From the NCBI GenBank assembly GCA_905616395.1, contig CAJQSQ010000012.1, positions 14,188 to 78,187 of the forward strand: a DNA stretch of 64,000 nucleotides. Reading direction: 5' to 3'. Position numbers and translations under genes: made by a program. How positions within the stretch are numbered: the first letter of the stretch is position 1; every line of letters starts with the position of its first letter. This document shows positions 1,015 through 22,099 of the stretch, piece after piece. Below the pieces are notes generated by a model, which saw only the letters and a program-made list of their open reading frames with translations, did not search any database and was not told the origin of the DNA. Source of the stretch: an uncultured Candidatus Pelagibacter sp. Lineage in GTDB: Bacteria > Pseudomonadota > Alphaproteobacteria > Pelagibacterales > Pelagibacteraceae.

Positions 1015-2088
1015 ATGAATAAAAAACCTATAATTTTAGGAATTGAATCAAGCTGTGATGAAACGGCTGCCTCTATCATAACTGAAAATAAGCAAGGTAT
1101 GCCAACAATTTTATCAAGTATTGTTTCAAGTCAGGTAGATGTTCATAAAGAATTCGGCGGCGTTGTGCCTGAACTTGCTGCAAGATCTCATATGGAAAAA
1201 ATAGATTTAATCACTAAAAAAGCACTTGATGAAAGCGGAGTAAAAATGGAGGACCTGGATGCTATAGCAGCAACTGCTGGACCAGGTCTTATAGTTTGCT
1301 TGTCTGTCGGTTTAAGTTTTAGTAAAGCAATGGCCTCTTCACTTAATAAACCTTTTATTGCAGTCAACCATCTTGAAGGGCATGCTTTAAGCCCAAAACT
1401 AAATTCTGAATTAAATTATCCTTATCTGTTACTTTTAATTTCTGGAGGTCATACTCAATTTTTAAGCGTTCAAGGTTTAGGAAGTTATAAACGATTAGGA
1501 ACCACTATTGATGATGCTGTGGGTGAGGCATTTGACAAAACAGCAAAACTATTAGGAATAGAGTTCCCTGGTGGCCCGCAGATTGAGGTATACGCAAAAA
1601 AAGGTGATCCAAATAAATATTTATTACCCAAGCCAATTTTTTATAAAGGTGGCTGCAATTTATCATTTGCGGGTTTAAAAACTGCTGTTTTAAAGATCTC
1701 TAAACAAATTAAAACCGATCAAGAAAAATATGATCTTGCAGCATCTTTTCAAAAAACAATCGAAGAAATACTATATAAGAAAAGTAAGATCGCTTTTGAA
1801 GAATTTAAAAATATAAATATAAAAAATAAAAATAAATTTGTGGTTGCGGGTGGCGTCGCTGCAAACAAAAGAATTAGAGAAGTCCTGACTAACCTTTGTG
1901 AGGAAGAGGACTTCGAAGCAATCTTTCCTCCCATTAATTTATGTGGTGATAATGCTGCAATGATTGCAATGGTTGGATTAGAAAAATTTAAACTTAAACA
2001 ATTTAGTGAGCTGGATCATCCAGCAAAACCTAGATGGCCTTTAGATGAGAATGCTATTTTTTTAAAAGGTGCTGGAGTAAAATTGTAA
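1015..2088 (+). CDS. tsaD: tRNA N6-adenosine threonylcarbamoyltransferase
   Basis: LGIESSCDET, GGVVPELAARSH, HLEGH, LLISGGHT, DDAVGEAFDK, CGDNAAMIA motifs. Confidence 0.97.
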   Translation: MNKKPIILGIESSCDETAASIITENKQGMPTILSSIVSSQVDVHKEFGGVVPELAARSHMEKIDLITKKALDESGVKMEDLDAIAATAGPGLIVCLSVGLSFSKAMASSLNKPFIAVNHLEGHALSPKLNSELNYPYLLLLISGGHTQFLSVQGLGSYKRLGTTIDDAVGEAFDKTAKLLGIEFPGGPQIEVYAKKGDPNKYLLPKPIFYKGGCNLSFAGLKTAVLKISKQIKTDQEKYDLAASFQKTIEEILYKKSKIAFEEFKNINIKNKNKFVVAGGVAANKRIREVLTNLCEEEDFEAIFPPINLCGDNAAMIAMVGLEKFKLKQFSELDHPAKPRWPLDENAIFLKGAGVKL

Positions 2089-2108
2089 TGCAATACTGGT
2101 TAATGAAA
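2088..2108 (+). repeat. Left copy of 21-bp direct repeat (attL-like), orphaned 5' end of EVE gene
   Basis: ATGCAATACTGGTTAATGAAA matches ATGCAGTACTGGTTAATGAAA at 8115-8135 at 20/21 positions; overlaps the tsaD stop as TAATG. Confidence 0.9.
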
Positions 2109-2450
2109 CCAACACACCTTGTAGCTGCTGCCTTAACTGAAATCATGTCTCGTTCGCCTTTATCTGTCATTTCATAAGTGCCTGAGGATTTTTTACAGCC
2201 TCAAACTATTTTGTTGAAGCAGAGCCTAAGCCTTTGATTTCATTAAAAATTTCTTGGCCAATTTTAGGTTTTAACTTAATTACGTTTCTGGTCTTTTTAT
2301 CTATCTTAGTTATAAAAAAACCATATTTAAACTTACCCTCATAAATATTACCCTGAGCATCTATATATTTTCCCTTACCATAAATTTTATTTTCTTTTAC
2401 TTGGACCGATGATTATGGGCATACAAAATCAATAATAAAAACTATCAATT
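2109..2450 (-). pseudogene. Degraded small protein with a MORN-like repeat
   Basis: Manual translation gives VKENKIYGKGKYIDAQGNIYEGKFKYGFFITKIDKKTRNVIKLKPKIGQEIFNEIKGLGSASTK* (TAG at 2206-2208), then FEAVK, then after a frameshift KSSGTYEMTDKGERDMISVKAAA; another in-frame TAA upstream and no intact start; boundaries approximate. Confidence 0.55.
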
Positions 2451-2624
2451 GGGCTTCAAAACAATTTTATAACTACATGTCTTTCTAAATGATGCTAATA
2501 AAATTTAATAAACCAAATTAATTAATAATAACTAACTCTATAAATGTGTTGAGCATATTTTATAAAATTGTGCAGTACATTGAGCTATATGATTTAGCAA
2601 AATCTTTCTAAACATCCCTTTCAT

Positions 2625-3758
2625 TTAAAAAAATTTGAACTTGTAATCCTTAAAATATTTCTGTGTATCTTTTAACCAAATATCTTTTTTTTTGAGAATA
2701 TTGTAGAATTTTATATCACTACCACCATATCCAAATATTTTAGTTTTTTTTCTTTTTGTATTCTTAACATTACTGATTGCGGAAATTATTTTATTTAAAT
2801 CGTAATCAACATTCGTTATTGAATAACCTTTGGATCTATTATGTTGGCGACTCCCAATGTTAATTGTAGGAACTCCAAAATATGGTGCTTCCCTTATCCC
2901 TGCACTAGAATTTCCAATTATAAATTCTGAGTTTTTTAGAGTGGTTAAAAAATATTCAAATCTCATTGATGGTATTAAATAAAACTGTTTATTTTTTTTT
3001 AACCTTTGATATTCAGCAAAAATTTTATCAGTTCCGAAATCATTATTTGGGTAAATAACAATAAAATTTTTTTTGCTTTGTATCAAGGCATCAACAAGTA
3101 TTGACGTTTGTTTGGCCAAATCCTTAACTTCTGTAGTTACCGGGTGAAATAAAAGTATGGCATAATTATCAAATCCTATTTTATAATGACGACGAGTTTT
3201 CTTTATATTTGGTAGTAGTTTAGATTTCATAACATCTATATCTGGAGATCCTATTTCATAAATTGTTTCTTTTGGCTCTCCTAAATGCATTACTCTGCGA
3301 TACGAAGACTTATTTGATACAAAATGTAAATTAACTAACTTAGTCACTGAATGTCGTATAACCTCATCAACAGTTCCTGAGACCTCACCACCCTCTATGT
3401 GTCCTACTTTTATATTGTTTAAAGATCCCACTATTGCTCCTGCTAGTGCCTCAACTCGATCCCCATGTACTATGATCATGTCTTGATTATTTTCCTTAAT
3501 ATAGTCAGAAAACCCTATTATAGTTTTAGCTAAAACTATATCCATATGATCTAAATAATTTTGATTGATAAATTTATAGATATTTTTTATTCCTGATCTA
3601 TCAACCTCAATATGAGTTGATCCATATTTCTCTAACATGTGCATACCTGTTACAAAAATAGTAACTTGAAATTCTGGATCTTTTTGAGTTCGAAGTATTA
3701 AAGACTTAATTTTTCCAAAATCTGCTCGCGTACCGGTTAAAAAGATAATCTTACGCAA
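2625..3758 (-). CDS. neuC: UDP-N-acetylglucosamine 2-epimerase (hydrolysing)
   Basis: TGTRADFGK, HGDRVEALA, HIEGGEVSGTVDEVIRH, GNSSAGIREAP; adjacent to neuB. Confidence 0.93.
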   Translation of the reverse strand: MRKIIFLTGTRADFGKIKSLILRTQKDPEFQVTIFVTGMHMLEKYGSTHIEVDRSGIKNIYKFINQNYLDHMDIVLAKTIIGFSDYIKENNQDMIIVHGDRVEALAGAIVGSLNNIKVGHIEGGEVSGTVDEVIRHSVTKLVNLHFVSNKSSYRRVMHLGEPKETIYEIGSPDIDVMKSKLLPNIKKTRRHYKIGFDNYAILLFHPVTTEVKDLAKQTSILVDALIQSKKNFIVIYPNNDFGTDKIFAEYQRLKKNKQFYLIPSMRFEYFLTTLKNSEFIIGNSSAGIREAPYFGVPTINIGSRQHNRSKGYSITNVDYDLNKIISAISNVKNTKRKKTKIFGYGGSDIKFYNILKKKDIWLKDTQKYFKDYKFKFF

Positions 3759-4812
3759 TATCTTTACCTTTTTCTCCTAAGGACGCACGAGTAACTCTAG
3801 CATCTTTTAATATAAATTTTTGTGCAACCTTACCAATTAATGAATCATAATCTGCAGCAGAATAATCTCCTCCACTAGGCCTACGCACCCACAAATTTTC
3901 TTCAGTCAAAATCTCTCCTTTAGAAATATTTTTAGTAGCAACAACTGATGCAAACGCAAATGCTTTTGTTTGAGCCTCTTCACTAACAGTGTTTTTATAG
4001 CCACCTCGCTCTAAAAAAATAGTATTACTACCATTTATCAATTCTTTTAATGAAATTGGATCCATTGAACAGGCAATATCTGGGCCTGGACGACTCATAT
4101 CATCAGTAAAATGTCTTTCAAGAATTGATGCACCTAAAGCAACGGCACCTAAACATGCATAATTATTTATTGTATGATCTGAAAGACCAATTATGGCATC
4201 AGGAAAAGCTTGACTCAATTCAGTTAATGCACCCAACCTAACTAATTCAGGTGGAGTTGGATAAATATTTGTACAATGTAGAAGGGCAAATGGTACACCT
4301 GCTTTTCTCATTATTTCAACAGATGGCCTAATACTTTCCACAGTATTCATTCCTGTACTTAATATTATTGGTTTACCTGCTTTGGCCACATATTTAACCA
4401 ATGGGTAGTTATTGCATTCCCCTGATCCTATTTTATAAGCAGGAACATCAAATTTGACTAAACGATTTACTGCTTCTCTTGAAAAGGGTGTACTTATAAA
4501 TATCGCATTTCGATCAATAATATGTTTCATAAGTTTTTTTTCATCAACTTCATTAAGTGCACATCTTTTCATGACTTCATAAATTGAAACTGTTGTATTG
4601 CCTGGTATTACTGCTTTTGCTTCTTCTGACATTTCGTCTTCAATTATGTGAGTTTGATGTTTAATTATCTCAGCACCAGCATTAATAGCTGAATCTGCCA
4701 TTTCAATAGCTAAATCAAGATTTCCTTCATGATTAATGCCAATTTCAGCAATAATCAATGGTGGGTGTTTATAACCAATCTTTCTTCCAGAAATTGAAAA
4801 TTCTAAGTCCAT
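3751..4812 (-). CDS. neuB: N-acetylneuraminate synthase family protein with C-terminal SAF/AFP-like domain
   Basis: IAEIGINHEG, KHQTH, FISTPFS, KIGSGECNNYPL, LLHCTNIYPT, GLSDHT, LERHFTD. Confidence 0.95.
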   Translation of the reverse strand: MDLEFSISGRKIGYKHPPLIIAEIGINHEGNLDLAIEMADSAINAGAEIIKHQTHIIEDEMSEEAKAVIPGNTTVSIYEVMKRCALNEVDEKKLMKHIIDRNAIFISTPFSREAVNRLVKFDVPAYKIGSGECNNYPLVKYVAKAGKPIILSTGMNTVESIRPSVEIMRKAGVPFALLHCTNIYPTPPELVRLGALTELSQAFPDAIIGLSDHTINNYACLGAVALGASILERHFTDDMSRPGPDIACSMDPISLKELINGSNTIFLERGGYKNTVSEEAQTKAFAFASVVATKNISKGEILTEENLWVRRPSGGDYSAADYDSLIGKVAQKFILKDARVTRASLGEKGKDIA

Positions 4813-4850
4813 TTAATTTTATTATCTAAAAACTTTATCCCACATCTTAT

Positions 4851-6086
4851 CTAGGGTTTCAGTTTATTTTTATAATACTTTAAGGTTTTATTTAAAGCTT
4901 TTTCTTGTTTATTCATTTCTGCCAAATTTCTTTGATTGGTGGTAAATTGCATCATTATTTTTTGAATATTTTCAGCATTCTCTGCATCGCCCCAACCATA
5001 TGAACTAGAAATTTTCATTGAACCAGAATAAAGACCTTTTTCCTTTGCATCTTTAAATGCTGGTTCATTATTTACAGTTTGCCAAGCAGCATAGATACCA
5101 TCACCACCAAAATATATAAATTTTTTTCTAAACTCTTGCCATTTTACCCCATATTTTTTCCCATTAAATATGCACGGAAAAGTATAGTAACTATGCGTAA
5201 ATTGATTTGGGATAAGTTGATTTATCAAAATATCAAAATTATTTTTTGAAATAACTTTTCTAAATTTCTTACCCATTACAATTCTTTTTGATAAAAAAAA
5301 ATTCAACCGCTCTATCTGGGCAAGCCCTATCGCAGCAGCAACCTCTGGTAATCTATAATTATAAGCTAAAACAGCATGTCTTTTCCAATTTGGATCTTGA
5401 AATTTATTTCTATCAATTCTTACCTTACCACTCTTGGCAGTTACATTTTTAAAACCAGCACAAGCAAATTCTCTCATTTTCTTTGCAAGTTTTGCATTAT
5501 TAGTTGAAACAATTCCTCCATCACCAGTTGTGATATGTTTGGAATTTTCAAAACTCCAACTACCCACATCCCCAACTGTTCCTGCTATTCTTTTTTTTTC
5601 ATCACTGGCAAAAAAACATTGGGCACAATCTTCTAATATAAATAATTTATTTTTTTTTGCTATTCTCTTTATTGCTGACATGTCACACATTAATCCATAA
5701 AGATGAACAACCATAATTGCTTTGGTCTTTTTAGTTATTTTTTTTTCAATATCATGCGGGTCAATTAGAAAAGTATCTTTTTTAACATCTGCATAAACTG
5801 GAACTGCTCCGCATTGCCAAACTGCATATCCACACATTGCAACTGTTAAGGCAGGAATAATAACCTCATCCCCATGCCCTACACCAAAAGCATTCAAAGC
5901 CATATGCAGCGTAGAAGTTCCAGAGTTTGCTGTAACGGCATAGTTTTGTTTGTGAATTTTTGCAAATTTCACCTCTAGTCTTTCATTCATTGTTCCTGAA
6001 GAATCTGCTCTGAAATCTGAAGATAAAATATTTTTTATATAACTCAATTCTTTACCTTTAAACTTCCATCCCTTATAAAGTGACAT
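4851..6086 (-). CDS. DegT/DnrJ/EryC1/StrS family PLP-dependent sugar aminotransferase
   Basis: NSGTSTLHMAL, VHLYG, ILEDCAQ, SFENSKHITTGDGG (PLP Lys), YNYRL. Confidence 0.92.
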   Translation of the reverse strand: MSLYKGWKFKGKELSYIKNILSSDFRADSSGTMNERLEVKFAKIHKQNYAVTANSGTSTLHMALNAFGVGHGDEVIIPALTVAMCGYAVWQCGAVPVYADVKKDTFLIDPHDIEKKITKKTKAIMVVHLYGLMCDMSAIKRIAKKNKLFILEDCAQCFFASDEKKRIAGTVGDVGSWSFENSKHITTGDGGIVSTNNAKLAKKMREFACAGFKNVTAKSGKVRIDRNKFQDPNWKRHAVLAYNYRLPEVAAAIGLAQIERLNFFLSKRIVMGKKFRKVISKNNFDILINQLIPNQFTHSYYTFPCIFNGKKYGVKWQEFRKKFIYFGGDGIYAAWQTVNNEPAFKDAKEKGLYSGSMKISSSYGWGDAENAENIQKIMMQFTTNQRNLAEMNKQEKALNKTLKYYKNKLKP

Positions 6087-6813
6087 ATTTTTTTCCTTGG
6101 TTTAATTTATAGTCTTTTTCTCTAAAATGATTAATTTTTGTAATTTTTTTATTTTTTTCTAAATAATTTATCACTTTAGCTGTTTTTATTGTGAAGGGAA
6201 ATTTAGAAAATATATTTTGAAAAAAAATGAGATCTTCTTTATAATCAAGTGTAAATCTCATATTATTGTTTTTTTTTAGTCTCAAAGAATAAGATTTATA
6301 ATTATTTTTTAAATAAGGAGCAATCATTTCAATATTATTATTTTTGGAATTATTAAAAGCTCGCTTAATTACAAAAGCTTTAAAAATATATGTAAATAAT
6401 CCCGTGATAGAGTTTTTATTAGATTTTATATAATCACAATTTTTATTAATGATTTTATTAATTGCATTTTTATAAGTCACATAATCAAACAGCAAATCAT
6501 CTGCGTCTACCATTACAGCAACCTTTACTTTAAATTTGTTAATACAATCATTCCATCTTTTTAGAACATTATTTTTTGAACCTCTAAAATATAAAATTTT
6601 ATTTTCCTTAGCTATATTACATAAAGGAAGGTCTGATGCCTCAGTTGTTGTAGCAAGTATGATCGGGTAACCAATTTTTTTTGCTCTATCTATTATTATT
6701 TCTATGATAAGTTTTTTATTTATTAATTTTAAACACTTTTTAGGAAGTCTTGTTGAGCTTGTCCTGACTGTTATTATAGTAAAAATATTTTTATTAATTT
6801 TTTTTTTTAACAT
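6073..6813 (-). CDS. Cytidylyltransferase (SpsF/CMP-nonulosonate synthetase-like)
   Basis: TVRTSSTRLPKK, ILATT, FRGS..NVL.R, VDADD, RFTLDY.EDL; ORF track starts at 6870 but ATG at 6813 (MLKKKINK) is the more likely start. Confidence 0.8.
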   Translation of the reverse strand: MLKKKINKNIFTIITVRTSSTRLPKKCLKLINKKLIIEIIIDRAKKIGYPIILATTTEASDLPLCNIAKENKILYFRGSKNNVLKRWNDCINKFKVKVAVMVDADDLLFDYVTYKNAINKIINKNCDYIKSNKNSITGLFTYIFKAFVIKRAFNNSKNNNIEMIAPYLKNNYKSYSLRLKKNNNMRFTLDYKEDLIFFQNIFSKFPFTIKTAKVINYLEKNKKITKINHFREKDYKLNQGKKYVTL

Positions 6814-6847
6814 AAAATTAATTACTATAATAAAGTAAAAATAATAA

Positions 6848-7528
6848 CTACCAAGATAACCATCCACCATCTACATAAACTTCTTGGGCATTAGTATAAG
6901 TATTTTTTTCATCTAATAAAAAATTAATTACAGGATCTATTTCATCTAAGTTCATCATTCTACCTTTTGGATTATTTTTATTATAATTTTTTCTAAAAAA
7001 AGAATTTAATCCTTTTTGATCAACCCCACCAAGCACAATACTATTAAACAAATATTTTTTCCCAAACTGTGTTCCAAAGTATTTCATCATCATGTTTGAT
7101 GCAGATTTCGATACACAATAACCAAGTTCTTTTGAAAAGTTTTTATAAATAAAATGTTTTGGTGTTTTGATGCTATATAAAGAAGTGAAGTTAATTATTC
7201 TACCTTCTTTTTGAAATTTTATATAGCTTTTAATAACATTTAAATTCAAAAAGAAATTTATATCAAAAAATTTTTTTATAGAGCTCTCGTCTAAATTTTT
7301 TGAATCTTTTTTTGAGTTTTTTGAAAGTGGTGTAGAATTATGACCATGGCAAAATATAACAGCATATATTTTATTATTATTGAATATCTCTTTTAAATAT
7401 TCATTATTTTTTAAATCATTGCCATTACTAATATCTGATTCAATAATAATAAAATTTTTTTTTAAATTTTTTTTTAAAGATGAGCCTATTCTTCCATTAG
7501 ATCCCGTTAAAAATATTTTTTTTTTCAT
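6848..7528 (-). CDS. SDR family oxidoreductase
   Basis: TGSNGRIG Rossmann motif, IINFTS, YCVSK (YxxxK), AQEVYVDGG. Confidence 0.88.
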   Translation of the reverse strand: MKKKIFLTGSNGRIGSSLKKNLKKNFIIIESDISNGNDLKNNEYLKEIFNNNKIYAVIFCHGHNSTPLSKNSKKDSKNLDESSIKKFFDINFFLNLNVIKSYIKFQKEGRIINFTSLYSIKTPKHFIYKNFSKELGYCVSKSASNMMMKYFGTQFGKKYLFNSIVLGGVDQKGLNSFFRKNYNKNNPKGRMMNLDEIDPVINFLLDEKNTYTNAQEVYVDGGWLSW

Positions 7529-7629
7529 TTAGGTTTATGTTTAATTTTTATTTTTTTATCAATCATTTATAGCAATTTTTTTATAAAAAAAATTAAATAT
7601 ACTTTTATTTCTAAATTTTTAGGGAATAT

Positions 7630-7929
7630 ATGGAAAAAAAACTAGGGTTTAATAATAGAGCTATCAGAAACTACAAAGCTACCTTCATAAGTGGTAAAGG
7701 TAATTCCAAAGATAGAGATTATGCACCATTTAACATATGCAAGACCACACAATATAAAGGCCTATATCTTTGTAAATATAAGAAGGGTAAGAAACACTTT
7801 GTCTCACAGTTTTATATCAAAAGTACTGGAAGGCTACGAAGGTTCACAGTAGGTAGATTTATTGACAATTTAAATGTCATCACTGGAGAAACTATCCAAA
7901 CTTCGCTTTCCAAAATCACAACCACATGA
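7630..7929 (+). pseudogene. Truncated tyrosine integrase (arm-type DNA-binding N-terminal region only)
   Basis: KGLYLCKYKKGKKHFVSQFYIKSTGRLRRFTVGRF resembles the integrase Arm-DNA-binding signature (GLYL...GxKxF..xY...GxxRRxTxGxF/Y); 99 aa with no catalytic core; lies about 185 bp from the right repeat. Confidence 0.6.
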
Positions 7930-8114
7930 AGAAGATGATTGCATTGAATAAGCATTGATAATGTTGAAAGTGTCATAGAAAAAATATAAGTTCTCTTATG
8001 TTATTAACTAATAAACACAACAAGAGTTGATCAGACATGTCACGTGTTTTATTAAAATAACGTAAAATAAAAGTGTTAAATAAAATTATGGTGACCTGTA
8101 AGGAAAACAATTAG

Positions 8115-8135
8115 ATGCAGTACTGGTTAATGAAA
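8115..8135 (+). repeat. Right copy of 21-bp direct repeat (attR-like), first 7 codons of intact EVE gene
   Basis: ATGCAGTACTGGTTAATGAAA; one synonymous mismatch (CAG vs CAA) to the copy at 2088-2108. Confidence 0.9.
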
Positions 8136-8528
8136 TCTGAGCCTGATGTTTGGTCTATTGATCAACAAAAAAAGGCTGGTGCTAAAGGCGCTCCTTGGGA
8201 TGGGGTAAGAAATTATCAAGCGGCTAAAAATTTAAGAAAAATGAAAAAAGGAGATCTTTGTTTTTTTTATCACTCAAATATTGGCAAAGAAATTGTTGGT
8301 ATAGTTGAGGTTATTGAAGAGGCTTTCTTAGACAAAACTGACAAGGATGGACGATTTGTAGCTGTTCAAGTAAAGTTTAAAGAAAAATTAAAGAAAAATG
8401 TAACGCTTGAAGAGATTAAAAAAACCAAGTCTCTTGGTCATTTATCGCTTATTAAACAAAGCAGATTATCCGTTATGCCCATAGACTCTAAAAGCTGGAA
8501 AATTTTAAATAAGATGAGTATTATTTAA
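8115..8528 (+). CDS. EVE domain-containing protein
   Basis: YWLMKSEP, WDGVRNYQA, MKKGDLCFFYHS, SRLSVMP. Confidence 0.95.
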   Translation: MQYWLMKSEPDVWSIDQQKKAGAKGAPWDGVRNYQAAKNLRKMKKGDLCFFYHSNIGKEIVGIVEVIEEAFLDKTDKDGRFVAVQVKFKEKLKKNVTLEEIKKTKSLGHLSLIKQSRLSVMPIDSKSWKILNKMSII

Positions 8529-8540
8529 ATAAAAAAATTC

Positions 8541-10586
8541 ATGCCAAAAAAAAAATCAACATCAAAGGTAAAAAAGGAAACTCCTAAAAACACTAAGGCT
8601 AAAAAAAAAATAAAGCCTATTAGAAAAAAGGTTTTAAAAAAAGTTGAAGAAAAAGAATTAATCATAAAGACTAAGCCTGAGTGGATAAAAAGTGCTCTAG
8701 TAAATAAAGCAAAATATCAGAAAAAATACTCAGACTCGATTAAAAATAACAATGACTTTTGGAAGAGTGAAGGGAAAAGAATTACCTGGATTAAACCGTA
8801 CAAAAAAATTAAAGACGTAAAATATAGTAAAAAAGAAGTTAAAATTAAATGGTATGAAGATGGAACATTAAACGCTTCTGCTAATTGTATAGACCGTCAC
8901 CTTAAAGATAAAAAAGATAAAACAGCAATTATTTGGGTGGGTGATGATCCAAAGGATACTAGGAAAATTTCATATAAACAATTACATAGCGAAGTTTCAA
9001 AAACTTCAAATGGTTTAAAAAAATTAGGAATTAAAAAAGGTGATCGAGTTACAATTTATTTAACTATGATCCCAGAGCTTGCAGTAACAATGCTGGCTTG
9101 TGCTAGAATTGGTGCGATCCACTCAATTATTTTTGGTGGATTTTCAGCAGACTCTATTTCTGGCAGGGTTAATGACTGTGATTCACATTATATCATTACC
9201 GCAGATGAAGGTGTTAGAGGTGGTAAAACTATCCCCCTAAAAGCAATCACTGATGAAGCATTAAGAAAATGTCCAGAAGTTAAGAAATGTATTGTTATAA
9301 AACGAACTGGAAATAAAGTTGGCTGGGTGAAAGGAAGAGATGTTTGGTATGACGACTTAATTAAAGGTGTATCAGATAAATGTGAGCCTGAGGAAATGAA
9401 TGCAGAAGACCCTTTATTTATTCTATACACATCTGGCTCTACTGGAAAACCAAAGGGAGTTTTACATACAACAGGTGGTTATATGGTTTACGCATCTATG
9501 ACCCATCAATATATTTTTAACTATAAACCAAAAGATATTTATTGGTGCACAGCTGATATTGGTTGGGTTACTGGTCACAGTTATATAATTTATGGTCCAC
9601 TTGCTAATGGTGCAACAACAATAATGTTTGAAGGGATTCCAACTTACCCTGACAGTTCAAGATGGTGGCAAATTATTGATAAACATAAAGTTAATATTTT
9701 TTATACAGCACCCACTGCTATTAGAGCTTTAATGAGAGAGGGTGATAAACCTGTTAAGAAAACTTCAAGAAAATCTTTAAAATTATTAGGAACTGTTGGA
9801 GAGCCTATTAATCCTGAGGCTTGGATGTGGTATTACAAAATAGTTGGAAATTCTAAATGTCCCATTGTTGATACGTGGTGGCAAACAGAGACAGGTGGAA
9901 TTTTAATTAGCCCACAAACAGGAGCTATGAATTTAAAACCCGGTTCTGCAAGTAAACCTTTTTATGGAATTAAGCCTTCTATAGTTGATAAAAATGGAAA
10001 AGAAATTAAAGGAGCTGGTGAAGGAAGATTGTGCATTTCTCAATCTTGGCCTGGACAAATGAGAACTGTTTATGGTGATCATCAAAGATTTATCGATACT
10101 TATTTCTCTCAGTTCGATGGAAAATATTTTACAGGTGACGGAGCTAAAAGAGATAAGGATGGCTACTACTGGATAACTGGTCGTGTAGATGATGTTATTA
10201 TTGTCTCTGGTCATAACCTTGGAACTGCTGAAATAGAAAGTGCTTTTGTTGCTCATCCAAAAGTTGCTGAAGCTGCTGTAGTTGGATATCCGCACGATAT
10301 TAAAGGTAACGGTCTTTACTGTTATGTAACTCTAAATGTTGGAGAAAAATCTGATTTAGATCTTGAAAGAGATTTGAAACTTTGGGTAAGAAAACAAATC
10401 GGAGCACTTGCAACACCTGATATTATTCATTTCTCTCCTGGACTTCCAAAAACAAGATCTGGGAAAATTATGAGAAGAATTTTAAGAAAAATTGCTGCTA
10501 ATGAGCATGATCAATTAGGTGATACATCCACTTTAGCTGATCCAAGTGTTGTTCAAAGTTTGGTAGATAATAGAAAAAATATTTAA
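8541..10586 (+). CDS. acs: Acetyl-CoA synthetase with Lys-rich N-terminal extension
   Basis: [38 protein letters not shown] (acetylation-site Lys). Confidence 0.96.
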
Positions 10587-11206
10587 ATTTTAATTAATTC
10601 TTTAAATTCTTTTTCAATATTTTCCCATTTTAAAATCATAGAATTTAATACAATCTTTCTGTCTAATGTTTTTAATTCTTCAGCCACTGGTGCCCACTTA
10701 TATAAAGTCAGAGCACTTTCATTAAATGGCCAAGACTTGTAATATGTATTCCAATCAATCTTTTCTAATCGTTCTTTAAACTTTTCTTTTGCTTGTAAAA
10801 TAATTTCTTTAGGCATTCCATTTTCGGTTTCCTTAGTTAAAATTTTATTATAAATTTCACTGGCTTTATCCATATCCTGATAATTACAAAAAATATTCAA
10901 GTATGATAGGCTGTAAAAAGTAAGATCCTGAAGTGCTATGGTGTAAATATTCCATTTAGCTTTATTAATAGATGCTAAAAATATTTCATCATCAAAATGA
11001 AGTACCCACTTTGTCCCCATTCTTGTTTTTAAATAATTATATAGAGTTACTTGTGATACCCAGGCTGACTGTGTTTGAATAAATAATGTAAGGTCTTCAA
11101 TATTCTTAATTTTTTTCTTTGGAAGTATTCCTTTAAATAAAGCAAAGAGATAAACTCTAATATCTTCAAGTTTTATGTCTTTTATTTTAAGTTTATATTT
11201 AAGCAA
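10583..11206 (-). CDS. Hypothetical protein
   Basis: 207-aa ORF filling the gap between acs and the symporter operon; no catalytic motif recognised. Confidence 0.75.
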
Positions 11207-16142: not shown

Positions 16143-17677
16143 TGAAAAAAATAAAAAAAGCTCTTATTTCAGTATCTGATAAAAAAAATTTAGGTAGTCT
16201 TTTAAAGGTTTTAACTAAATACAAGATTGAGTTAATTAGCTCTGGGGGCACCTATAAAGAAATAAAGAAACTTAAATTTAAATGTCTGGAAGTTTCTGAG
16301 TATACGGGTTCACCAGAAATTCTTGGTGGAAGAGTTAAAACCCTGCACCCAAAAATTCACGCAGGCATATTAAGTAAAAGAAATGATAAATCTCATGCTA
16401 AGGAATTAAAGGCTAATCAGTATGATGAAATTGACCTAGTTATTGTTAACTTTTACCCGTTTGAAAAAACTTTAGAGCAAACAACTAATCATTCAAAAAT
16501 AATAGAGAATATTGATGTTGGGGGTCCCACTATGGTTAGGGCAGCAGCAAAAAATTATAACGACGTTACGGTTATCACATCTTCAAACCAATATGAGACT
16601 CTAATTAATGAATTAGAAAATAACAAAGGATCAACATCTATTGGGTTTAGAGAAAAAATGTCTTCAGAGGCCTTCTCTGAGACGGCCTATTATGATGCTG
16701 TAATTTCTAACTATTTTAATAAGATAAGAAAAACCAATTTCCCAAAAAAGAAAATTATTTATGGAAACCTAATTGAAAAATTAAGATATGGAGAAAATCC
16801 ACATCAAGAAGCTGCAATTTATTCTAAAACTCAAAATCTTAATATTGAACAAATACATGGTAAGCAGTTAAGCTATAACAATTATAATGATATTTTTTCT
16901 GCATTAACAATATCTAAATCTTTACCTAAAAACTCTGGAACAGTTATTGTAAAACACGCCAATCCTTGTGGTGTTTCGATCAGTAAAGATAGTTTAAAAA
17001 GTTATAAATTAGCTCTTGCTTCTGATCCAGTTAGTGCTTTTGGTGGAATAGTTTCATGTAATTTCAAAATAAATAAAGTTCTAGCTTTAGAGCTTAATAA
17101 AATTTTCTTAGAGGTTGTCATTGCAAATGGTTTTGAAATTGATGCTTTAAAAATTTTAAAAAAGAAAAAAAATATAAGAATTATTGATGCAACAGAATTT
17201 ACAATGAAAGATTTAATTAAATTTGGCTCTGTGAATGAATCTATCTTAACACAATCTGAAGACTTAAAAGTATTTGAACTTAAAGATTTTAAAATCGTTT
17301 CAAAACAAAAACCAAATAAATCCCAATTGAAAAATTTAATTTTTGCATTTAATGTTTGTAGATATGTAAAATCCAATGCAATTGTACTTGCCAGTCAAGA
17401 AGCAACAGTTGGCATTGGTTCAGGACAACCTAGTAGACTTGATAGCTGTCAAATTGCTATAGATAAAATGAATAAATTTCAAAACCTAAAAGAAGATGTT
17501 GTGGCAGCTTCTGATGCATTTTTTCCATTTGTAGATGGTATTGAAAAATTAGTACAATCAGGTGTTTCAGCTGTAATACAGCCTTCTGGATCAATTAGAG
17601 ATAAAGAAATAATAAAATTTGCAAACCAAACTGGTACCATTTTAGTTTTTTCTAAAACAAGACATTTCAGACATTAA
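16142..17677 (+). CDS. purH: Bifunctional AICAR transformylase/IMP cyclohydrolase
   Basis: ALISVSDK, GGRVKTLHP, IENIDVGGP, LRYGENPHQ, SDAFFPF; ORF track start 16121, likely ATG 16142. Confidence 0.97.
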   Translation: MKKIKKALISVSDKKNLGSLLKVLTKYKIELISSGGTYKEIKKLKFKCLEVSEYTGSPEILGGRVKTLHPKIHAGILSKRNDKSHAKELKANQYDEIDLVIVNFYPFEKTLEQTTNHSKIIENIDVGGPTMVRAAAKNYNDVTVITSSNQYETLINELENNKGSTSIGFREKMSSEAFSETAYYDAVISNYFNKIRKTNFPKKKIIYGNLIEKLRYGENPHQEAAIYSKTQNLNIEQIHGKQLSYNNYNDIFSALTISKSLPKNSGTVIVKHANPCGVSISKDSLKSYKLALASDPVSAFGGIVSCNFKINKVLALELNKIFLEVVIANGFEIDALKILKKKKNIRIIDATEFTMKDLIKFGSVNESILTQSEDLKVFELKDFKIVSKQKPNKSQLKNLIFAFNVCRYVKSNAIVLASQEATVGIGSGQPSRLDSCQIAIDKMNKFQNLKEDVVAASDAFFPFVDGIEKLVQSGVSAVIQPSGSIRDKEIIKFANQTGTILVFSKTRHFRH

Positions 17678-18011
17678 AAATTTGATCAATTTTAGCTGCT
17701 AAAATAAAATCATTTTCTGACAGTCCTTCTATAGCGTGAGTGGTAATTACAATTTTAGCGTATCCCCAACCAAATGAAATATCTGGATGGTGATTTTCAT
17801 TTTCTGATATTTCACTAACTTTATTTATAAAATTTTGACTATTAATAAAATTCTTAAAGATAAAATTTTTCTCTAAAAAGTATATTTCTTTTGTATCTTT
17901 TTCAACATTCCAACCATCAACTTTTTTTTGATATTTGTGAATTTCACTGATATCGAAAGGTAAAATTCCACCCTCACATGGTACACATTTTTTATTAAGT
18001 AGATCACTCAT
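17667..18011 (-). CDS. Pterin-4-alpha-carbinolamine dehydratase
   Basis: CVPCEGG, ENHHPDI, THAIEGLSENDFILAAKID. Confidence 0.9.
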   Translation of the reverse strand: MSDLLNKKCVPCEGGILPFDISEIHKYQKKVDGWNVEKDTKEIYFLEKNFIFKNFINSQNFINKVSEISENENHHPDISFGWGYAKIVITTHAIEGLSENDFILAAKIDQIFNV

Positions 18012-18033
18012 TAATTAGTATATTTTAAAATTT

Positions 18034-18108
18034 TGGAGCGGGTCAAGGGAATCGAACCCTCTACCTAATCGTTGGCAACGATTCGCTCTACCAATGAGCT
18101 AGACCCGC
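18034..18108 (-). tRNA. tRNA-Gly(GCC)
   Basis: Acceptor stem GCGGGTC/GACCCGC, anticodon arm AATCG-TTGCCAA-CGATT, T loop TTCGATT, U73 discriminator, encoded CCA. Confidence 0.96.
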
Positions 18109-18205
18109 TTATAAAAGACACTATAAATAGATGGTTTTTTTAGTTCAATCAATAATAAAGTTTTTGATTAGTATATAGATTTTCAAAAATTTGCTAAAAG
18201 AAAGA

Positions 18206-18847
18206 ATGAAAAAACAAGATTTACCAAAAACTATCCCTGTCTTTCCATTAAGTAACTTTATTATATTTCCATATACAACAGTTCCGTTGAATATATTTGA
18301 ACCAAGATATATTAAAATGATTAATGATAGTATGAAAACAAACAAAATGATTGGTTTGATTCAGCCAAAAAATAATGATGATAGTTCAATCCCTGGGCTT
18401 CATAAGATTGGCTGTTTAGGAAAAATAACTAACTTTAAAGATACATCAGATGGTAGATATATGGTTGATCTAAATGGAATAACACGGTTTGAAATAACTA
18501 AAGAAATTAAAAGTACAGAACCTTACCGTATTTGTGAAACCAATTATGATAATTTTGAACTTGATTTAATTCCTGAAAAAAAGAAATTAAAATTTTCTGA
18601 TCTTGAGTCAATATTTAGGGATTTAAAATTATTATTTGAAAAAAAGGGATATATCATAAATTGGAAATCTTTAGAAAAACAAGATTTGAATGAAACAATA
18701 AATGCCCTGGCGATGGCTTCTCCTTTTTCACTAGAAGAAAAACAAATTTTATTAGAGAGTAAAAATTTAGAAGCGCGAAAAGATAAAATTTCAGAAATAT
18801 TAAAAACTTATAGTTTTGATGATTTTCATAATACAACTATTCAGTAA
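18206..18847 (+). CDS. LON peptidase substrate-binding domain protein
   Basis: IPVFPL, VPLNIFEPRY, DGRYMVDLNGITRF; ORF track start is TTG at 18191, ATG at 18206 preferred. Confidence 0.88.
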   Translation: MKKQDLPKTIPVFPLSNFIIFPYTTVPLNIFEPRYIKMINDSMKTNKMIGLIQPKNNDDSSIPGLHKIGCLGKITNFKDTSDGRYMVDLNGITRFEITKEIKSTEPYRICETNYDNFELDLIPEKKKLKFSDLESIFRDLKLLFEKKGYIINWKSLEKQDLNETINALAMASPFSLEEKQILLESKNLEARKDKISEILKTYSFDDFHNTTIQ

Positions 18848-18849
18848 GC

Positions 18850-19944
18850 TTAGAAATTAATCCCTGTGTCAGCTAGTTTAATAAAATAATTATTTAGATT
18901 CTTATTTTTCCCAATACCTTTAATAATTTTGCTAAAACTTTTATTTTGAATTTTTTTATCTAAGTTAAAAGACTCATAGATTAAGTCTATGGCTTTAGAA
19001 AAAATAAAGTTTTTATCTTTCGTTTTTTTTTCGAACTCGTCTAATATGAGTGAATCTAATTGAATACCTAATTCAATTTTGTCTTCGATAATTTTAGTTA
19101 GAATTCTAAGATCCCGTATTGTCATATTGAATCCTTGTCCTGCTAATGGGTGCACTCTGTGAAGTATGTCTCCAAAAGCCAAAATATTTTTATGATGATA
19201 GTTTCTTAGATTAGATGAACTTAACTCAAAGCTATTTAATTTATTAATTTTATTAATTTTATATTTAGGGTTATTTTTATTAATTAAATCTATTACATCA
19301 CTATTATTAAATTTTTTATTCCTAATATCTATTGAATATACAACAGATGTTTCAATGTTTGAGATTGGTAAAAATGCAATTGGACCTTGCTTTGTAAAAA
19401 TTTGAGTTGCTGTATTATTCTTTATTTTTTTATGTTTTAAAATAGTGGTATAAGCAAGATTATGATAATTTTTACTAATTTTTTTTGTGAAATATTTTTT
19501 CGCTAAAAAATTATTTGCATCACAATTAATTATTAAATCATATTCTTTTTTATTTAAAAACTCTTCACTAATATTTTTTTTTAATATTATGTTTTTAAAA
19601 AACTTACTTTTACTAAGGTTGCTTTTTAATGACTTTAAAAGATCATCATTTTTTATTATATAAAATAGATCCTTTTTATCATTCTCAAATTTTAATAAAT
19701 TTTCTGTATCGATTTTATCTGTATAAATTTCTATTTTATTTATTTTACAGTAATTAGTTTTTGCAATTTTGAAAATTTTTTCTTTAAAAAATTCTAAATT
19801 ACTTTTAGATATTCCTATTGTTCTATTTGAAGAAAAATTACCATTTCTACTTTTGTGATAATAGTGAACATTTATTTTTTTATTTATAAGGCTTTTAGCT
19901 AAAGATAGAGCAGTTAGACCTTCACCAATAATACAAACATTCAT
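18850..19944 (-). CDS. UbiH/Coq6-like FAD-dependent monooxygenase
   Basis: IIGEGLTA, FTKQGPIAFLP, GDILHRVHPLAGQGFNMTIRD; likely start MNVCIIG at 19944 (track 19983). Confidence 0.85.
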   Translation of the reverse strand: MNVCIIGEGLTALSLAKSLINKKINVHYYHKSRNGNFSSNRTIGISKSNLEFFKEKIFKIAKTNYCKINKIEIYTDKIDTENLLKFENDKKDLFYIIKNDDLLKSLKSNLSKSKFFKNIILKKNISEEFLNKKEYDLIINCDANNFLAKKYFTKKISKNYHNLAYTTILKHKKIKNNTATQIFTKQGPIAFLPISNIETSVVYSIDIRNKKFNNSDVIDLINKNNPKYKINKINKLNSFELSSSNLRNYHHKNILAFGDILHRVHPLAGQGFNMTIRDLRILTKIIEDKIELGIQLDSLILDEFEKKTKDKNFIFSKAIDLIYESFNLDKKIQNKSFSKIIKGIGKNKNLNNYFIKLADTGINF

Positions 19945-20008
19945 AATAATTTTAATTTTAACAATAAAAATTAGATGATACAAAGTGATTAATTAGACTC
20001 ATTTATTT

Positions 20009-22099
20009 ATGGAATTTAAAAAATTAGCCAACAATACAATTAATTTTGGCATAAATAGAATTATTGAAACCGCTGGGATTGCTCTTGTTATAATTGGTCT
20101 CCTTTTACTGGGTTCTCTTGCAACTTTTTCTCCTGACGATCCTAATTTTATTTTTCCAGATAATACTGAAATTAAAAATTTACTTGGTTTTAACGGAAGT
20201 TATACAGCTGATCTTTTTTTTCAAACTTTTGGACTCATTGCTTTACTAATTCCATTTACACTTATTTTTTCTGGTATAAATATGGTTCTAAATAAGAAAA
20301 TTTTTTTAATATTCGAAAGTATTTTTTATTCAGTTCTTTATTCTTCATTTGGTTCTCTATTTTTTTCTTTTTTTTACCCTACTGCCTTCAACCTTTATAT
20401 TAATGGAAATGGTGGTTTTATTGGAAAATATTTAGAAACAACTTTTTTAACTTCTTTAATCAATATTAATTCTCAAATTTCTTATTACTTGTTAATTTTA
20501 ATTATTTTAATTTTATTTTTAATTAGTATCCATTTTAAAATTATTACTTTTTATAAAATAATAATAAAATTTATTAAGTTAATCTTTGTTAAAAAAGAAA
20601 AGAGCTACACTAATAAAAATGAAATAATTAGTGAGTTTATACCGCAAGAAGAAATTACAAATTTAATTCAAGAAGATTTACCCTTTATAAAAAGTGAAAA
20701 TAAATCTCTTAGCAAAAAAATTCGCTTCAAACTACCTACTATTGATTTGCTTAAAATCCCCACACAAAAAGATAGAGAAAAATTAAAAGATGAAGATTAT
20801 ATTGATAGTGAATTTTTAGAAAAAATCTTATTAGATTTTGGGGTTAGTGGAGATATTAAGAAAGTTAGTCATGGCCCCGTGGTAACACTAAATGAGTTTG
20901 AGCCAGCAGCCGGTGTTAAGGTTTCAAAAATTATTAATCTCTCAGATGACATTGCTCGAAACACTAGCTCTGAATCTGCTAGAATTGCTACTATACCAGG
21001 ACGTAGCACTATTGGTATAGAACTTCCAAATTCTAGTCGTGAGAATGTTTATTTAAGTGAAATACTCTCTAACTCGGATTTTAATAAAAAAGATATCAGA
21101 TTACCGATTGCGCTAGGTAAGAATATTTCTGGTATTCCTGTTGTTGGAGATTTAGCTTCTATGCCTCACTTATTAATTGCTGGAACGACTGGATCGGGTA
21201 AGTCTGTTTGTATAAATACTATTATCTTATCTCTACTTTACAGACACACACCTGATAAATGTAAGTTCATATTAATTGATCCTAAAATGCTTGAACTTTC
21301 AACTTATGAAGGCATACCTCATTTATTATGTCCTGTAATTACTGAAGCAAAAAAAGCTGCCTCTGTCTTAGGTTGGGTTGTTAAAGAGATGGAAAATAGA
21401 TACCGACTTATGACTAAGGAAGGGGTGCGTAATATTGATGGCTATAATGCTAAACACATTTTGGCTATGCCCTATATCGTTGTTGTGGTAGATGAGATGT
21501 CTGACCTAATGCTCGTTGCTGGAAAAGAGATAGAAAATTATATTCAGAAATTATCACAAATGGCAAGAGCTGCTGGTATTCACATTATAATGGCCACACA
21601 AAGACCAAGTGTTGATGTTATTACAGGAACCATCAAAGCAAATTTTCCAACAAGAATATCTTTTCAAGTAACCTCAAAAATAGATAGTAGAACAATTTTA
21701 GGTGAACAAGGTGCGGAACAGCTACTCGGTAAAGGAGATATGCTTTATATGTCTTCTGCAAATAAGATAGTTAGAATTCACGCTCCATTTGTGTCAGAAA
21801 GCGAGATTGAAAAAGTTAACAATTATTTAAGAAATCAAGCAGAGCCAGATTATATAGATGAAATCTTAAATTTTGCAGATGAAAAGGAAATGAGTGGGGA
21901 TGCCTCTGGCTCAAGAGATAAAGATGAATTATACCAAGCAGCTCTTGATATTATTAGATCTGAAGGAAAGGCATCTACCTCGTTTTTACAAAGAAAATTA
22001 CAAATAGGATACAATAGAGCTGCAAGAATTATTGACATGATGGAAACTGATGGGATTGTGAGTAAGGCTAATCATGTTGGTAAACGAGATGTTCTTTAA
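20009..22099 (+). CDS. ftsK: DNA translocase FtsK
   Basis: N-terminal transmembrane region, PHLLIAGTTGSGKS, IDPKMLELS, VVDEMSDLM, ATQRPSVDV, LQRKLQIGYNRAAR gamma domain. Confidence 0.97.
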   Translation: MEFKKLANNTINFGINRIIETAGIALVIIGLLLLGSLATFSPDDPNFIFPDNTEIKNLLGFNGSYTADLFFQTFGLIALLIPFTLIFSGINMVLNKKIFLIFESIFYSVLYSSFGSLFFSFFYPTAFNLYINGNGGFIGKYLETTFLTSLININSQISYYLLILIILILFLISIHFKIITFYKIIIKFIKLIFVKKEKSYTNKNEIISEFIPQEEITNLIQEDLPFIKSENKSLSKKIRFKLPTIDLLKIPTQKDREKLKDEDYIDSEFLEKILLDFGVSGDIKKVSHGPVVTLNEFEPAAGVKVSKIINLSDDIARNTSSESARIATIPGRSTIGIELPNSSRENVYLSEILSNSDFNKKDIRLPIALGKNISGIPVVGDLASMPHLLIAGTTGSGKSVCINTIILSLLYRHTPDKCKFILIDPKMLELSTYEGIPHLLCPVITEAKKAASVLGWVVKEMENRYRLMTKEGVRNIDGYNAKHILAMPYIVVVVDEMSDLMLVAGKEIENYIQKLSQMARAAGIHIIMATQRPSVDVITGTIKANFPTRISFQVTSKIDSRTILGEQGAEQLLGKGDMLYMSSANKIVRIHAPFVSESEIEKVNNYLRNQAEPDYIDEILNFADEKEMSGDASGSRDKDELYQAALDIIRSEGKASTSFLQRKLQIGYNRAARIIDMMETDGIVSKANHVGKRDVL

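Follow-up and report, generated by a model that had tools for sequence, protein, structure and literature searches.

The 64,000-nt stretch considered here (the window), from an uncultured Candidatus Pelagibacter, carries an island of about 6 kb (2088-8135) between tsaD and the gene for a stand-alone EVE protein. This island is very probably the product of site-specific integration of SAR11 elements into the first 21 bp of the EVE gene, a conserved gene of the modified-base-reader type. If so, there is an integrase-driven route to flexible-genome variation, at a protein-coding site, in SAR11, the most abundant bacterial clade in the ocean. For one SAR11 island this would provide a concrete mechanism: a 21-bp attachment (att) site in a coding start, an integrase family, apparently complete metagenomic elements of ~9-11 kb, and a decay series leading to fixed glycan and defence cargo. 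What appears to be new is the unusual attachment site at the EVE start, used by a very divergent integrase; the kind of element, tycheposon-like, was known already.

A repeated 21-mer at the start of the EVE gene

The left chromosomal flank of the island, on the B side of attL, is tsaD (1015-2088, plus strand; PF00814, E=4.5e-90). It ends in ...TTG TAA, and the stop codon overlaps an ATG (TAATG, 2086-2090), which is also the ATG of the att core. An initial annotation of the window had noted that the 21-mer beginning there recurs with one synonymous change, and this holds: the copies are ATGCAATACTGGTTAATGAAA at 2088-2108 and ATGCAGTACTGGTTAATGAAA at 8115-8135, with starts 6,027 bp apart, and they differ only by CAA (left) against CAG (right). 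No further copy with up to three mismatches occurs in the 64-kb window, and 100 shuffles gave 0 matches.

The right-hand copy opens the intact EVE gene, the target (8115-8528, plus strand; PF01878, E=1e-45). As the attR core (8115-8135, plus strand) it is of the element-type variant (CAG), identical to the attP core of a relative (L114; loci are referred to by L numbers). The left-hand copy, the attL core (2088-2108, plus strand), is of the host-type variant (CAA): it consists of the first 7 codons of EVE and is the same 21-mer as in the empty site of L003. From 2109 it runs into sequence that is not EVE (CCAACACACC...), a CCA-type continuation in common with L033, L119, and L028. The severed EVE start reads on into island DNA as a 29-codon remnant ORF (MQYWLMKPTHLV...*, 2088-2177, plus strand); no gene in itself, it is annotated as a 29-aa gene in metagenome contigs.

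Two other readings of the junctions were rejected. Derivation of the sequence after the core from a tRNA is one; neither ARAGORN nor Rfam detects a tRNA at the junctions. The other is a hairpin at the attL of the window (TGGTTAATGAAACCA), taken as coincidental: typical attP and attL sequences read ...AAAACA... and do not form it.

Empty and occupied tsaD-EVE sites

A genome scan with the EVE protein gave 80 loci, among them 34 Pelagibacteraceae loci that hold both tsaD and EVE. In 16 of these 34 SAR11 genomes the site is empty, reading tsaD-TAATG-EVE with a single 21-mer, as the initial annotation had predicted; sequence resembling the element-side arm found in the window (the P-arm, 7939-8114; see below) was present at none of the 16. 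That tsaD and EVE are usually operonic in alphaproteobacteria, as had also been supposed, is true only in part: they are adjacent at SAR11 empty sites, but in other Alphaproteobacteria (L053, L040, L041, L045, L055, L061, L064) gpsA lies between them, in the order hemC-tsaD-gpsA-EVE, often followed by acs. SAR11 lack gpsA at that position, so that tsaD there abuts EVE.

In the remaining 18 genomes, 35 bp to 6.8 kb separate tsaD from EVE. The inserts vary by genome, and include genes for TPR/glycosyltransferase-like and sulfotransferase-like proteins, FkbM-type methyltransferases, a carbamoyltransferase, a 2-oxoglutarate (2OG)-oxygenase, an ACP/KAS III pair, and tldD/pmbA (part of these genes were named by eye from translations). 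In L033, a left junction of the window kind (TAATGCAATACTGGTTACTCAAA|CCAAAG...) is found with an MmeI-type restriction-modification enzyme, a helicase, and a T5orf172 protein. The proposal of a small surface-glycan variability hotspot therefore describes only part of what is found: glycan and nonulosonic-acid cargo does recur, but restriction-modification and other cargo occupies the same site too.

In the closest genome, Pelagibacter sp. Uisw_114 (L001), the insert is 1.9 kb long and gene-poor, with a decayed left junction and a window-type right end (GAAAACAATTAG|ATG). Its decayed attL (8110-8180) has destroyed the tsaD stop, and tsaD is longer by three codons (VVQ); the insert contains short ORFs only, including an Lrp/AsnC-like fragment (named by eye). 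One SAR11 subgroup (L016, L017, L018, L020, and L025) has a conserved small lysine-rich ORF (MSKRYSGKSFKDASVMKQAKLSLKEKRKLKKEKKKK...) right after tsaD and before EVE, with no att scar; in L016 and L017 it is followed by sulfotransferase-like and FkbM methyltransferase genes. Apparent decayed cores after tsaD in L012 and L027 were discarded as att scars, being the C-terminal codons of a convergent TPR/glycosyltransferase-like gene.

The start of EVE itself is variable. Codon 2 differs widely among SAR11 genomes (Q, K, N, or S). In L033 (9989-10408) the EVE N-terminus is MARSYFLLK instead of MQYWLLK, and a similarly unusual start, MAKSYFLMK, is the attL core of an intact element in L096-99 (L096 115-141). 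Judging by these two starts, elements appear to have swapped the first codons of EVE for variant sequences.

Integrase-bearing relatives and their att configurations

Related elements were collected from the genomic contexts of full-length integrases (described below) and from a metagenome scan with an integrase alignment (51 loci). All four att configurations are seen across them. At least 12 distinct contigs (L095, L100, L105-110, L114-116, L119, L131) contain attP, in the order distal element genes, conserved P-arm ending in ...AAACAATTAG, core (ATGnnnTAYTGGYTnnTnAAA), C-rich P'-arm, and integrase gene, the last lying ~150-180 bp rightward of the core. A Shine-Dalgarno-like sequence comes before the core, which encodes MxYWLMK, and the P-arm is homologous to window 7939-8114; contigs with an attP of this MQYWLMK type had been anticipated in the initial annotation. 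The identity of the attP and attB cores is explained by what the core encodes, the conserved N-terminus of EVE (M-x-Y-W-L-x-K).

Intact relatives are ~9-11 kb long and carry genes for the integrase, a Gp2.5-like single-stranded DNA-binding protein (SSB), a DUF5906 primase-helicase, a PD-(D/E)XK/RusA-like nuclease, and a Cox-like protein. Some also have cargo, which in L096 lies on the minus strand, distal to the replication genes. In L110 (11,069 bp) the genes are those for the integrase, the Gp2.5-like SSB, an 811-aa DUF5906 primase-helicase, the PD-(D/E)XK/RusA-like nuclease, and a 182-aa weakly Cox-like protein; no structural, packaging, terminase, or capsid-related genes were recognised in it. 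Its ends overlap exactly by 123 nt, giving a unit of ~10.9 kb, circular or tandem. Near-exact terminal overlaps are found in L114, L108, and L105 as well, and the free form of the elements is probably circular.

Where attL has an intact integrase (L091-94, L118) the order is hemC-tsaD-core-P'-arm-integrase. Full-length integrases of the family next to the EVE-start core, which the initial annotation had proposed to look for, are thus found both in the attP contigs and beside tsaD (L091-94, L118, L147, and, as a pseudogene, L132). In L096-99, L112, and L113 the core is preceded by genes other than tsaD, which argues that the target is the start of EVE and not the end of tsaD.

Both attL and attR are present on one contig in L132, L147, L139, L142, and L150. 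L132, with a tsaD 95% and an EVE 94% identical to those of the window, has its integrase pseudogene adjoining attL; its cargo consists of an epimerase, a metallophosphatase, an ATP-grasp protein, NeuB, and a methyltransferase. NeuB-family genes are found at the site also in L120, and other glycan-type genes in L150. L147 and L139 are 1.5-kb scars. L142, L145, and L150 are arrays; a P-arm|core|P'-arm junction lies inside them, and L119 has one too.

Wherever the two core copies differ within one contig, the tsaD-proximal copy is of the empty-site type and the EVE-proximal copy of the attP type. The informative positions are 6 in the window (attL as in the L003 empty site, attR as in the L114 attP), 15 in L147, and 16-18 in L150. 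From these polymorphisms between attL and attR copies we infer that strand exchange occurs in the 3' third of the 21-mer, although heteroduplex mismatch repair could blur the signal. Together with the empty sites and the lack of tRNAs at the junctions, the attP/attL/attR series supports the earlier suggestion that the core lies in the first 7 codons of a protein-coding gene rather than in a tRNA.

Three of these loci have features of their own. L091 has an intact element after tsaD (17250-21701), with a sulfate permease, a TENA/THI-4 gene, and an SSF transporter downstream; neither EVE nor acs was found within 10 kb downstream of the element. L133 (1-300, 2400-2893) is a family element at a secondary site, within a transketolase/E1-beta-like gene (...EHRWLY|...). 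Its target (...CGTTGGTTATATAA) is similar to the EVE core, and the ATGCAGTACTGGTTATTAAAA of the P-arm gives the severed 3' part of the gene a new in-frame start. L117 (251-560) has tsaD-attL-integrase plus a second P-arm and core, inverted, downstream of the integrase (~2270-2312, minus strand), an arrangement that suggests inversions or head-to-head insertions at the site; there is also a short internal duplication in its integrase 5' region.

A divergent integrase family

The integrase fragment of the initial annotation is a 99-codon ORF (7630-7929, plus strand). It has no direct match in Pfam, PHROG, or NCBIfam, and a word-indexed protein search returned the ORF itself alone. An exhaustive HMMER search with its 99 aa gave 29 relatives, including P0015, a 547-aa protein that scores 30.6 bits on PF00589 (Phage_integrase; cut-off 27.1). 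A second search extended these to a family of 545-581 aa proteins, most members of which have no precomputed Pfam match. The 581-aa integrase of L110 matches phrog_1 (E=4e-16). Aligned to its full-length relatives, the window ORF matches residues 1-88 and diverges afterwards, with no catalytic domain left; the fragment is thus the N-terminal ~88 residues of a tyrosine integrase. This stump is 81-84% identical (tblastn) to L133 and L117. The element in the window has no functional integrase, just these 88 codons; the gene is intact in relatives.

By sequence match and fold the full-length relatives are divergent tyrosine integrases (tyrosine recombinases). R357, K395, R506, H530, and Y540 are invariant in 16 family sequences, and Lys503 (KMLR) replaces the first His of HxxR; these catalytic residues were assigned by motif position only, without structural superposition. 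PDB sequence searches with P0015 and with the integrase profile gave no recombinase match, and a fold search was needed. The top PDB matches of an AlphaFold model of P0041 (mean pLDDT 69) are XerH, lambda Int, Tn1549 Int, and Cre, with probability 1.0, E values from 8.5e-5 upward, and modest TM-scores (0.35-0.46 on the target).

The N-terminal part of the same model matches 3ju0, 3jtz, and 3rmp, the arm-type binding domains of HPI, HAI7, and P4-like integrases (probability 0.96-0.99, but E 0.09-0.19). The PF13356 match is marginal (E=0.021, below cut-off). On the basis of these N-terminal fold matches, the part retained in the window is predicted to be an arm-type DNA-binding domain; the paired repeats in the attP arms are consistent with an arm-binding N-terminal domain.

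What remains of the element in the window, and a possible history

Homology to the elements starts 8 nt before the integrase ATG (~7622), at the joint between cargo and element remnant (7619-7625; blastn matches to L133 and L117 start at 7622). The P'-arm and the core preceding it are missing. The integrase pseudogene (residues 1-88; 7630-7896, plus strand) is fused to an 18-19 aa piece of a Cox-like gene (7890-7946, plus strand), which is 84-89% identical (tblastn) to ORFs of L114 and L116 and 72% identical to L110 9697-10245 (its last, Cox-like gene, ~182 aa). Deletion of most of the element interior has joined the two.

The P-arm of attP, which forms the element side of attR (7939-8114, plus strand), has counterparts in relatives: by blastn it is 85% identical to L139 and 84-85% to L107 and L108, and in a 19-sequence alignment it aligns with 18 other loci, 82% identical to L139, with a consensus end of ...AAACAATTAGATG. 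Its arm-type repeat is degenerate, one of two tandem copies having been lost in the window. A Shine-Dalgarno-like GTAAGGAAAACAATTAG lies within it, immediately before the EVE ATG.

Recombination between attP and the EVE start would leave the host core behind the preceding gene, here tsaD, as attL. The P-arm of the element would supply a Shine-Dalgarno-like sequence (GTAAGGAAA/TGGAGAAA), the ATG, and codons 2-6 to EVE as attR, and EVE would stay intact. In the window the integrase stump lies beside attR and not attL, so that the island is most likely a composite of two elements or a rearranged scar. A history of this kind would involve at least two integrations, or one and a later replacement, followed by deletions. 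The EVE-proximal unit (7622-8114) would have shrunk to 88 integrase codons, the scrap of the last gene, and the P-arm; the tsaD-proximal part (2109-7621) would have kept the core and minus-strand cargo only, i.e., the MORN fragment and five-gene nonulosonic-acid module described below; and the internal junction between the two units would have been deleted. As a reading it is the most economical, modelled on the L145 and L150 arrays and on the minus-strand distal cargo of L096. The two-element history is a reconstruction rather than an observation, and its chances seem to us about equal either way.

The earlier picture of a single site-specific element between the two cores is therefore retained insofar as the island appears to be integrase-made, but not as one simple element with its cargo: the integrase is at the wrong end. 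We infer that the sugar genes were delivered by an element. With no integrase or P'-arm left, the island could move only by homologous recombination in its flanks; the element in the window is dead, and the island fixed and non-mobile.

Sugar cargo

The cargo consists of five minus-strand genes, overlapping or closely packed (2625-7528). The gene nearest to tsaD (2625-3758) encodes a NeuC-type hydrolysing UDP-GlcNAc 2-epimerase (TIGR03568, 398 bits against a cut-off of 236; PF02350). The next (3751-4812) encodes a NeuB-family nonulosonic-acid synthase with PF03102 and a SAF domain (TIGR03569, 374.7 bits, just under the cut-off of 399.65), and is followed by a DegT-family, LegC/PseC-like aminotransferase (4851-6086; PF01041, E=1e-76), whose top NCBIfam matches, LegC and PseC, are both well under their cut-offs. 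A cytidylyltransferase (CTP_transf_3; 6073-6870; PF02348, E=3.5e-13) has no equivalog-level NCBIfam match; it is a probable CMP-sugar synthetase, and the true start of its ORF is probably internal. The last is a PtmA-like short-chain dehydrogenase (SDR; 6848-7528; PF13561, PF00106), with matches to NF050062 (PtmA) and PRK09186 under cut-offs.

By these assignments the five genes form a predicted nonulosonic-acid module, which probably decorates a surface glycan. An NCBIfam scan found no 4,6-dehydratase and no N-acetyltransferase among the island genes. The initial annotation had called this sialic-acid cargo. The broader class stands, given the LegC/PseC-like aminotransferase and the PtmA-like SDR; but with these present, no dehydratase or acetyltransferase, and NeuC alone passing its equivalog cut-off, sialic acid in the strict sense (N-acetylneuraminic acid, Neu5Ac) is not established.

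Between attL and these genes lies a fragment of a MORN-repeat gene, a pseudogene (~2209-2412, minus strand). Its Pfam MORN match is weak (E=0.35), and it is 35% identical (tblastn, 2209-2412) to a full 265-aa MORN protein in the island of L027. The GC content is 0.20-0.23 over 6000-7750, as compared to 0.30-0.36 in the flanks. The low-GC stretch spans the cytidylyltransferase and SDR genes, and the NeuC, NeuB, and aminotransferase genes are at 0.30-0.35; from this contrast the cargo may itself be mosaic.

Occurrence in assemblies, metagenomes, and metatranscriptomes

The identical arrangement is found in at least 10 independent assemblies (ENA, JGI, Logan), three of which span tsaD into EVE, and an assembly chimera, which the initial annotation had named as a possible flaw, is thereby excluded. 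In four metagenomes a single 5,888-bp unitig covers 2087-7974 at a depth of ~9-25, while the summed depth of the flanks (tsaD, EVE, acs) runs to hundreds to thousands, at both 90% and 99% likeness. The predicted drop in coverage over the cargo is thus seen. The flank depth is high because the flanks recruit many SAR11 lineages, and strain-specific flank unitigs have a depth similar to that of the island. Of the unitig breaks, one is at the core (2086/2087) and one within the shared P-arm (7974/7975). The depth pattern and these breaks suggest an island fixed in its lineage and rare in the community, at a site that is polymorphic.

Other P-arm variants, joined to EVE sequences at least 99% identical, occur in the same samples (loose ends at 8102). 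Across 8102-8114, DNA runs X2, X3, and X5 (EVE at least 99%) and RNA runs X25-X27 (at least 95%) have the upstream P-arm variants ...AAGTAAGTAAACACTGGAG... and ...AAATAAATAAACTCTG.... The presence of different P-arm variants upstream of near-identical EVE genes suggests that several attR alleles coexist. Two joints derived from reads (1970/8258, 2003/8257) have 21-23 nt of flank behind them and were left out of the evidence for empty sites.

Contigs from metatranscriptomes cover EVE and extend upstream into sequence of the P-arm type, and one covers the Cox-like gene of an intact element; these contigs are undirected and could include DNA, making them weak evidence.

Alternative histories

A single element could also be the starting point. 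It would have decayed to a scar like those of L139 and L147, and the 5.5 kb of MORN and nonulosonic-acid genes would have come afterwards from another SAR11 island, through illegitimate or homologous recombination that replaced the P'-arm; the sugar cargo would then never have been carried by an integrase-bearing element. We consider this rather unlikely, but it is not without attractions. L139, with a tsaD 92% identical to that of the window, is arranged as tsaD-attL-P'-integrase stump...P-arm-attR-EVE; it has the most similar P-arm (82%) and no sugar genes, so that the main difference between the two is 2109-7621 in place of a 150-nt P'-arm. No P-arm/core/P'-arm junction remains inside the island, and cargo without att scars occurs at the tsaD-EVE spot in many SAR11 genomes. 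Arguments against a single element are the tandem arrays that do have such an internal junction at this site (L145, L150, L119), the intact L096 element with its minus-strand distal cargo, and the bases after the window attL core (CCAAC...), which resemble the CCA-type ends of L033, L119, and L028 and not a P'-arm of the L139 type (TACAGTG...).

More remote from an integrase is the view of the island as an ordinary flexible island of the replacement type, varying mainly by homologous recombination in conserved flanks, with incidental integrase scars. SAR11 islands have generally been described without canonical mobile elements (PMC11796062), att scars are absent at half of the occupied sites, the finding of an identical island in distant samples fits spread or fixation without mobility of its own, and the strain-specific flank unitigs equal the island in depth. 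This view leaves unexplained the precise 21-bp duplication, the P-arm homology, the integrase stump, and the attP/attL/attR series, and as a full account it seems improbable. It is, however, compatible with an origin by integration: integration would create the island, and homologous recombination would spread it. Short repeats are numerous in AT-rich genomes, and the core could in principle be a chance repeat or a product of chimeric assembly; with 0 matches expected by chance, 10 independent assemblies, and a single 5,888-bp unitig over 2087-7974, the probability of this is very small.

Site-specific integration into the EVE start, the reading preferred here, has several observations to contend with. 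The integrase adjoins attL in every intact or less decayed relative, and adjoins attR in the window. The stretch from the cargo to the integrase stump has kept neither a middle core nor a P'-arm, only ~10 nt after the window attL core resemble other P'-arms, and the cargo is on the strand opposite to that of L132 and L120. In at least nine other SAR11 genomes the tsaD-EVE interval holds cargo, but neither an att scar nor an integrase could be detected; not every insertion here leaves the marks of an integrase mechanism, or perhaps even needs one. As to the elements, a tandem array, too, can give terminal overlaps like those of L110; IMG/VR had no match to two DNA patterns and two integrase queries, and there was none among the INPHARED phages.

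Comparison with known systems

The closest parallel is with the tycheposons of Prochlorococcus, which have a tyrosine recombinase, a primase/helicase, and cargo, and whose decayed copies accumulate into islands, with partial target repeats between them (Hackl et al., bioRxiv 10.1101/2020.12.28.424599). The SAR11 elements share the combination of recombinase, replication module, and optional adaptive cargo (L110, L096), a short conserved target, decayed copies and arrays that make an additive island, and a streamlined marine host. They differ in that host, which is SAR11, in their unusually long integrase (545-581 aa), and in their target: tycheposons enter tRNA or tmRNA genes, while the elements described here enter the coding start of EVE and supply its ribosome-binding site (RBS) and first codons. 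The likeness is one of gene content and island build. The elements are therefore tycheposon-like in their working, but are not filed as tycheposons, since they do not target a tRNA.

Marine phage satellites (virion-encapsidated integrative mobile elements, VEIMEs) and integrase-associated mobile regions have been reported from Pelagibacter, at sites "frequently near tRNAs" (Eppley et al. 2022, PMC9618062; Biller et al. 2025, PMC11876622). They too are small (~5-12 kb), with an integrase and a primase, integrated in Pelagibacter, and seen in circular- or concatemeric-looking contigs. As a difference, no packaging or capsid-redirecting genes were detected in L110. No mention of EVE or tsaD was found in either paper (PMC9618062, PMC11876622); elements of the EVE-start type may well be present, unremarked, in their catalogues.

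Entry into a protein gene has a counterpart elsewhere. The SXT/R391 integrative and conjugative elements (ICEs) reportedly integrate at the 5' end of prfC, as Hochhut and Waldor are said to have found in 1999. There, as here, a tyrosine integrase acts at the 5' end of a conserved protein gene, and the gene stays functional because the element supplies it with a new 5' coding end and with expression signals. The SXT/R391 elements are conjugative, ~100 kb long, and found in Vibrio and enterics; their target is unrelated, their integrase different, and they do not have a primase-only replicon architecture. With P4-like and HPI-type integrases the family appears to share an N-terminal arm-type domain, as judged by the fold matches to 3ju0, 3jtz, and 3rmp, and, like theirs, its P and P' arms hold arm-type repeats in pairs; however, those integrases enter the 3' ends of tRNA genes, and sequence similarity to the SAR11 family is marginal (PF13356, E=0.021).

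Among SAR11 islands, hypervariable region 2 (HVR2) and similar flexible islands resemble the one in the window in having low-GC glycan-biosynthesis cargo, variable among close relatives and under-recruited in metagenomes. HVR2 is in the rRNA operon region and tens of kb long, whereas the window island is ~6 kb, lies between tsaD and EVE, and has integrase and att scars. A survey of SAR11 islands found no canonical mobile elements, attributed variation to homologous recombination, and noted one integrase at one island ("GI-35"; PMC11796062). No description of the EVE start as an attachment site was found in the literature searched.

A wider proposal can be made: that the EVE start is the SAR11 counterpart of the tycheposon tRNA sites, a dedicated site for an undescribed, currently active family of self-replicating integrative elements, which would repeatedly rewrite the EVE RBS and first six codons and build, by accretion and decay, a small island through which surface-glycan and defence genes are swapped among Pelagibacter lineages. 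To our minds this proposal hangs evenly in the balance. Activity of the elements is suggested by the circular-looking units, the many attP junctions, and the metatranscriptome sequences from element genes and attR. Cargo of this kind (nonulosonic-acid and other glycan genes, restriction-modification) would be expected to alter phage susceptibility. Whether integrases drive island formation in SAR11 can now be tested directly, and the P-arm followed by ATGnnnTAYTGG provides a simple sequence marker for surveying the elements.

Other features of the window

A scan of the island for promoters and terminators gave the same counts as shuffles and so carries no information. Further along the window, a 207-aa ORF with no Pfam match (10583-11206, minus strand) lies between acs and the genes for a small membrane protein and an SSF-type transporter.

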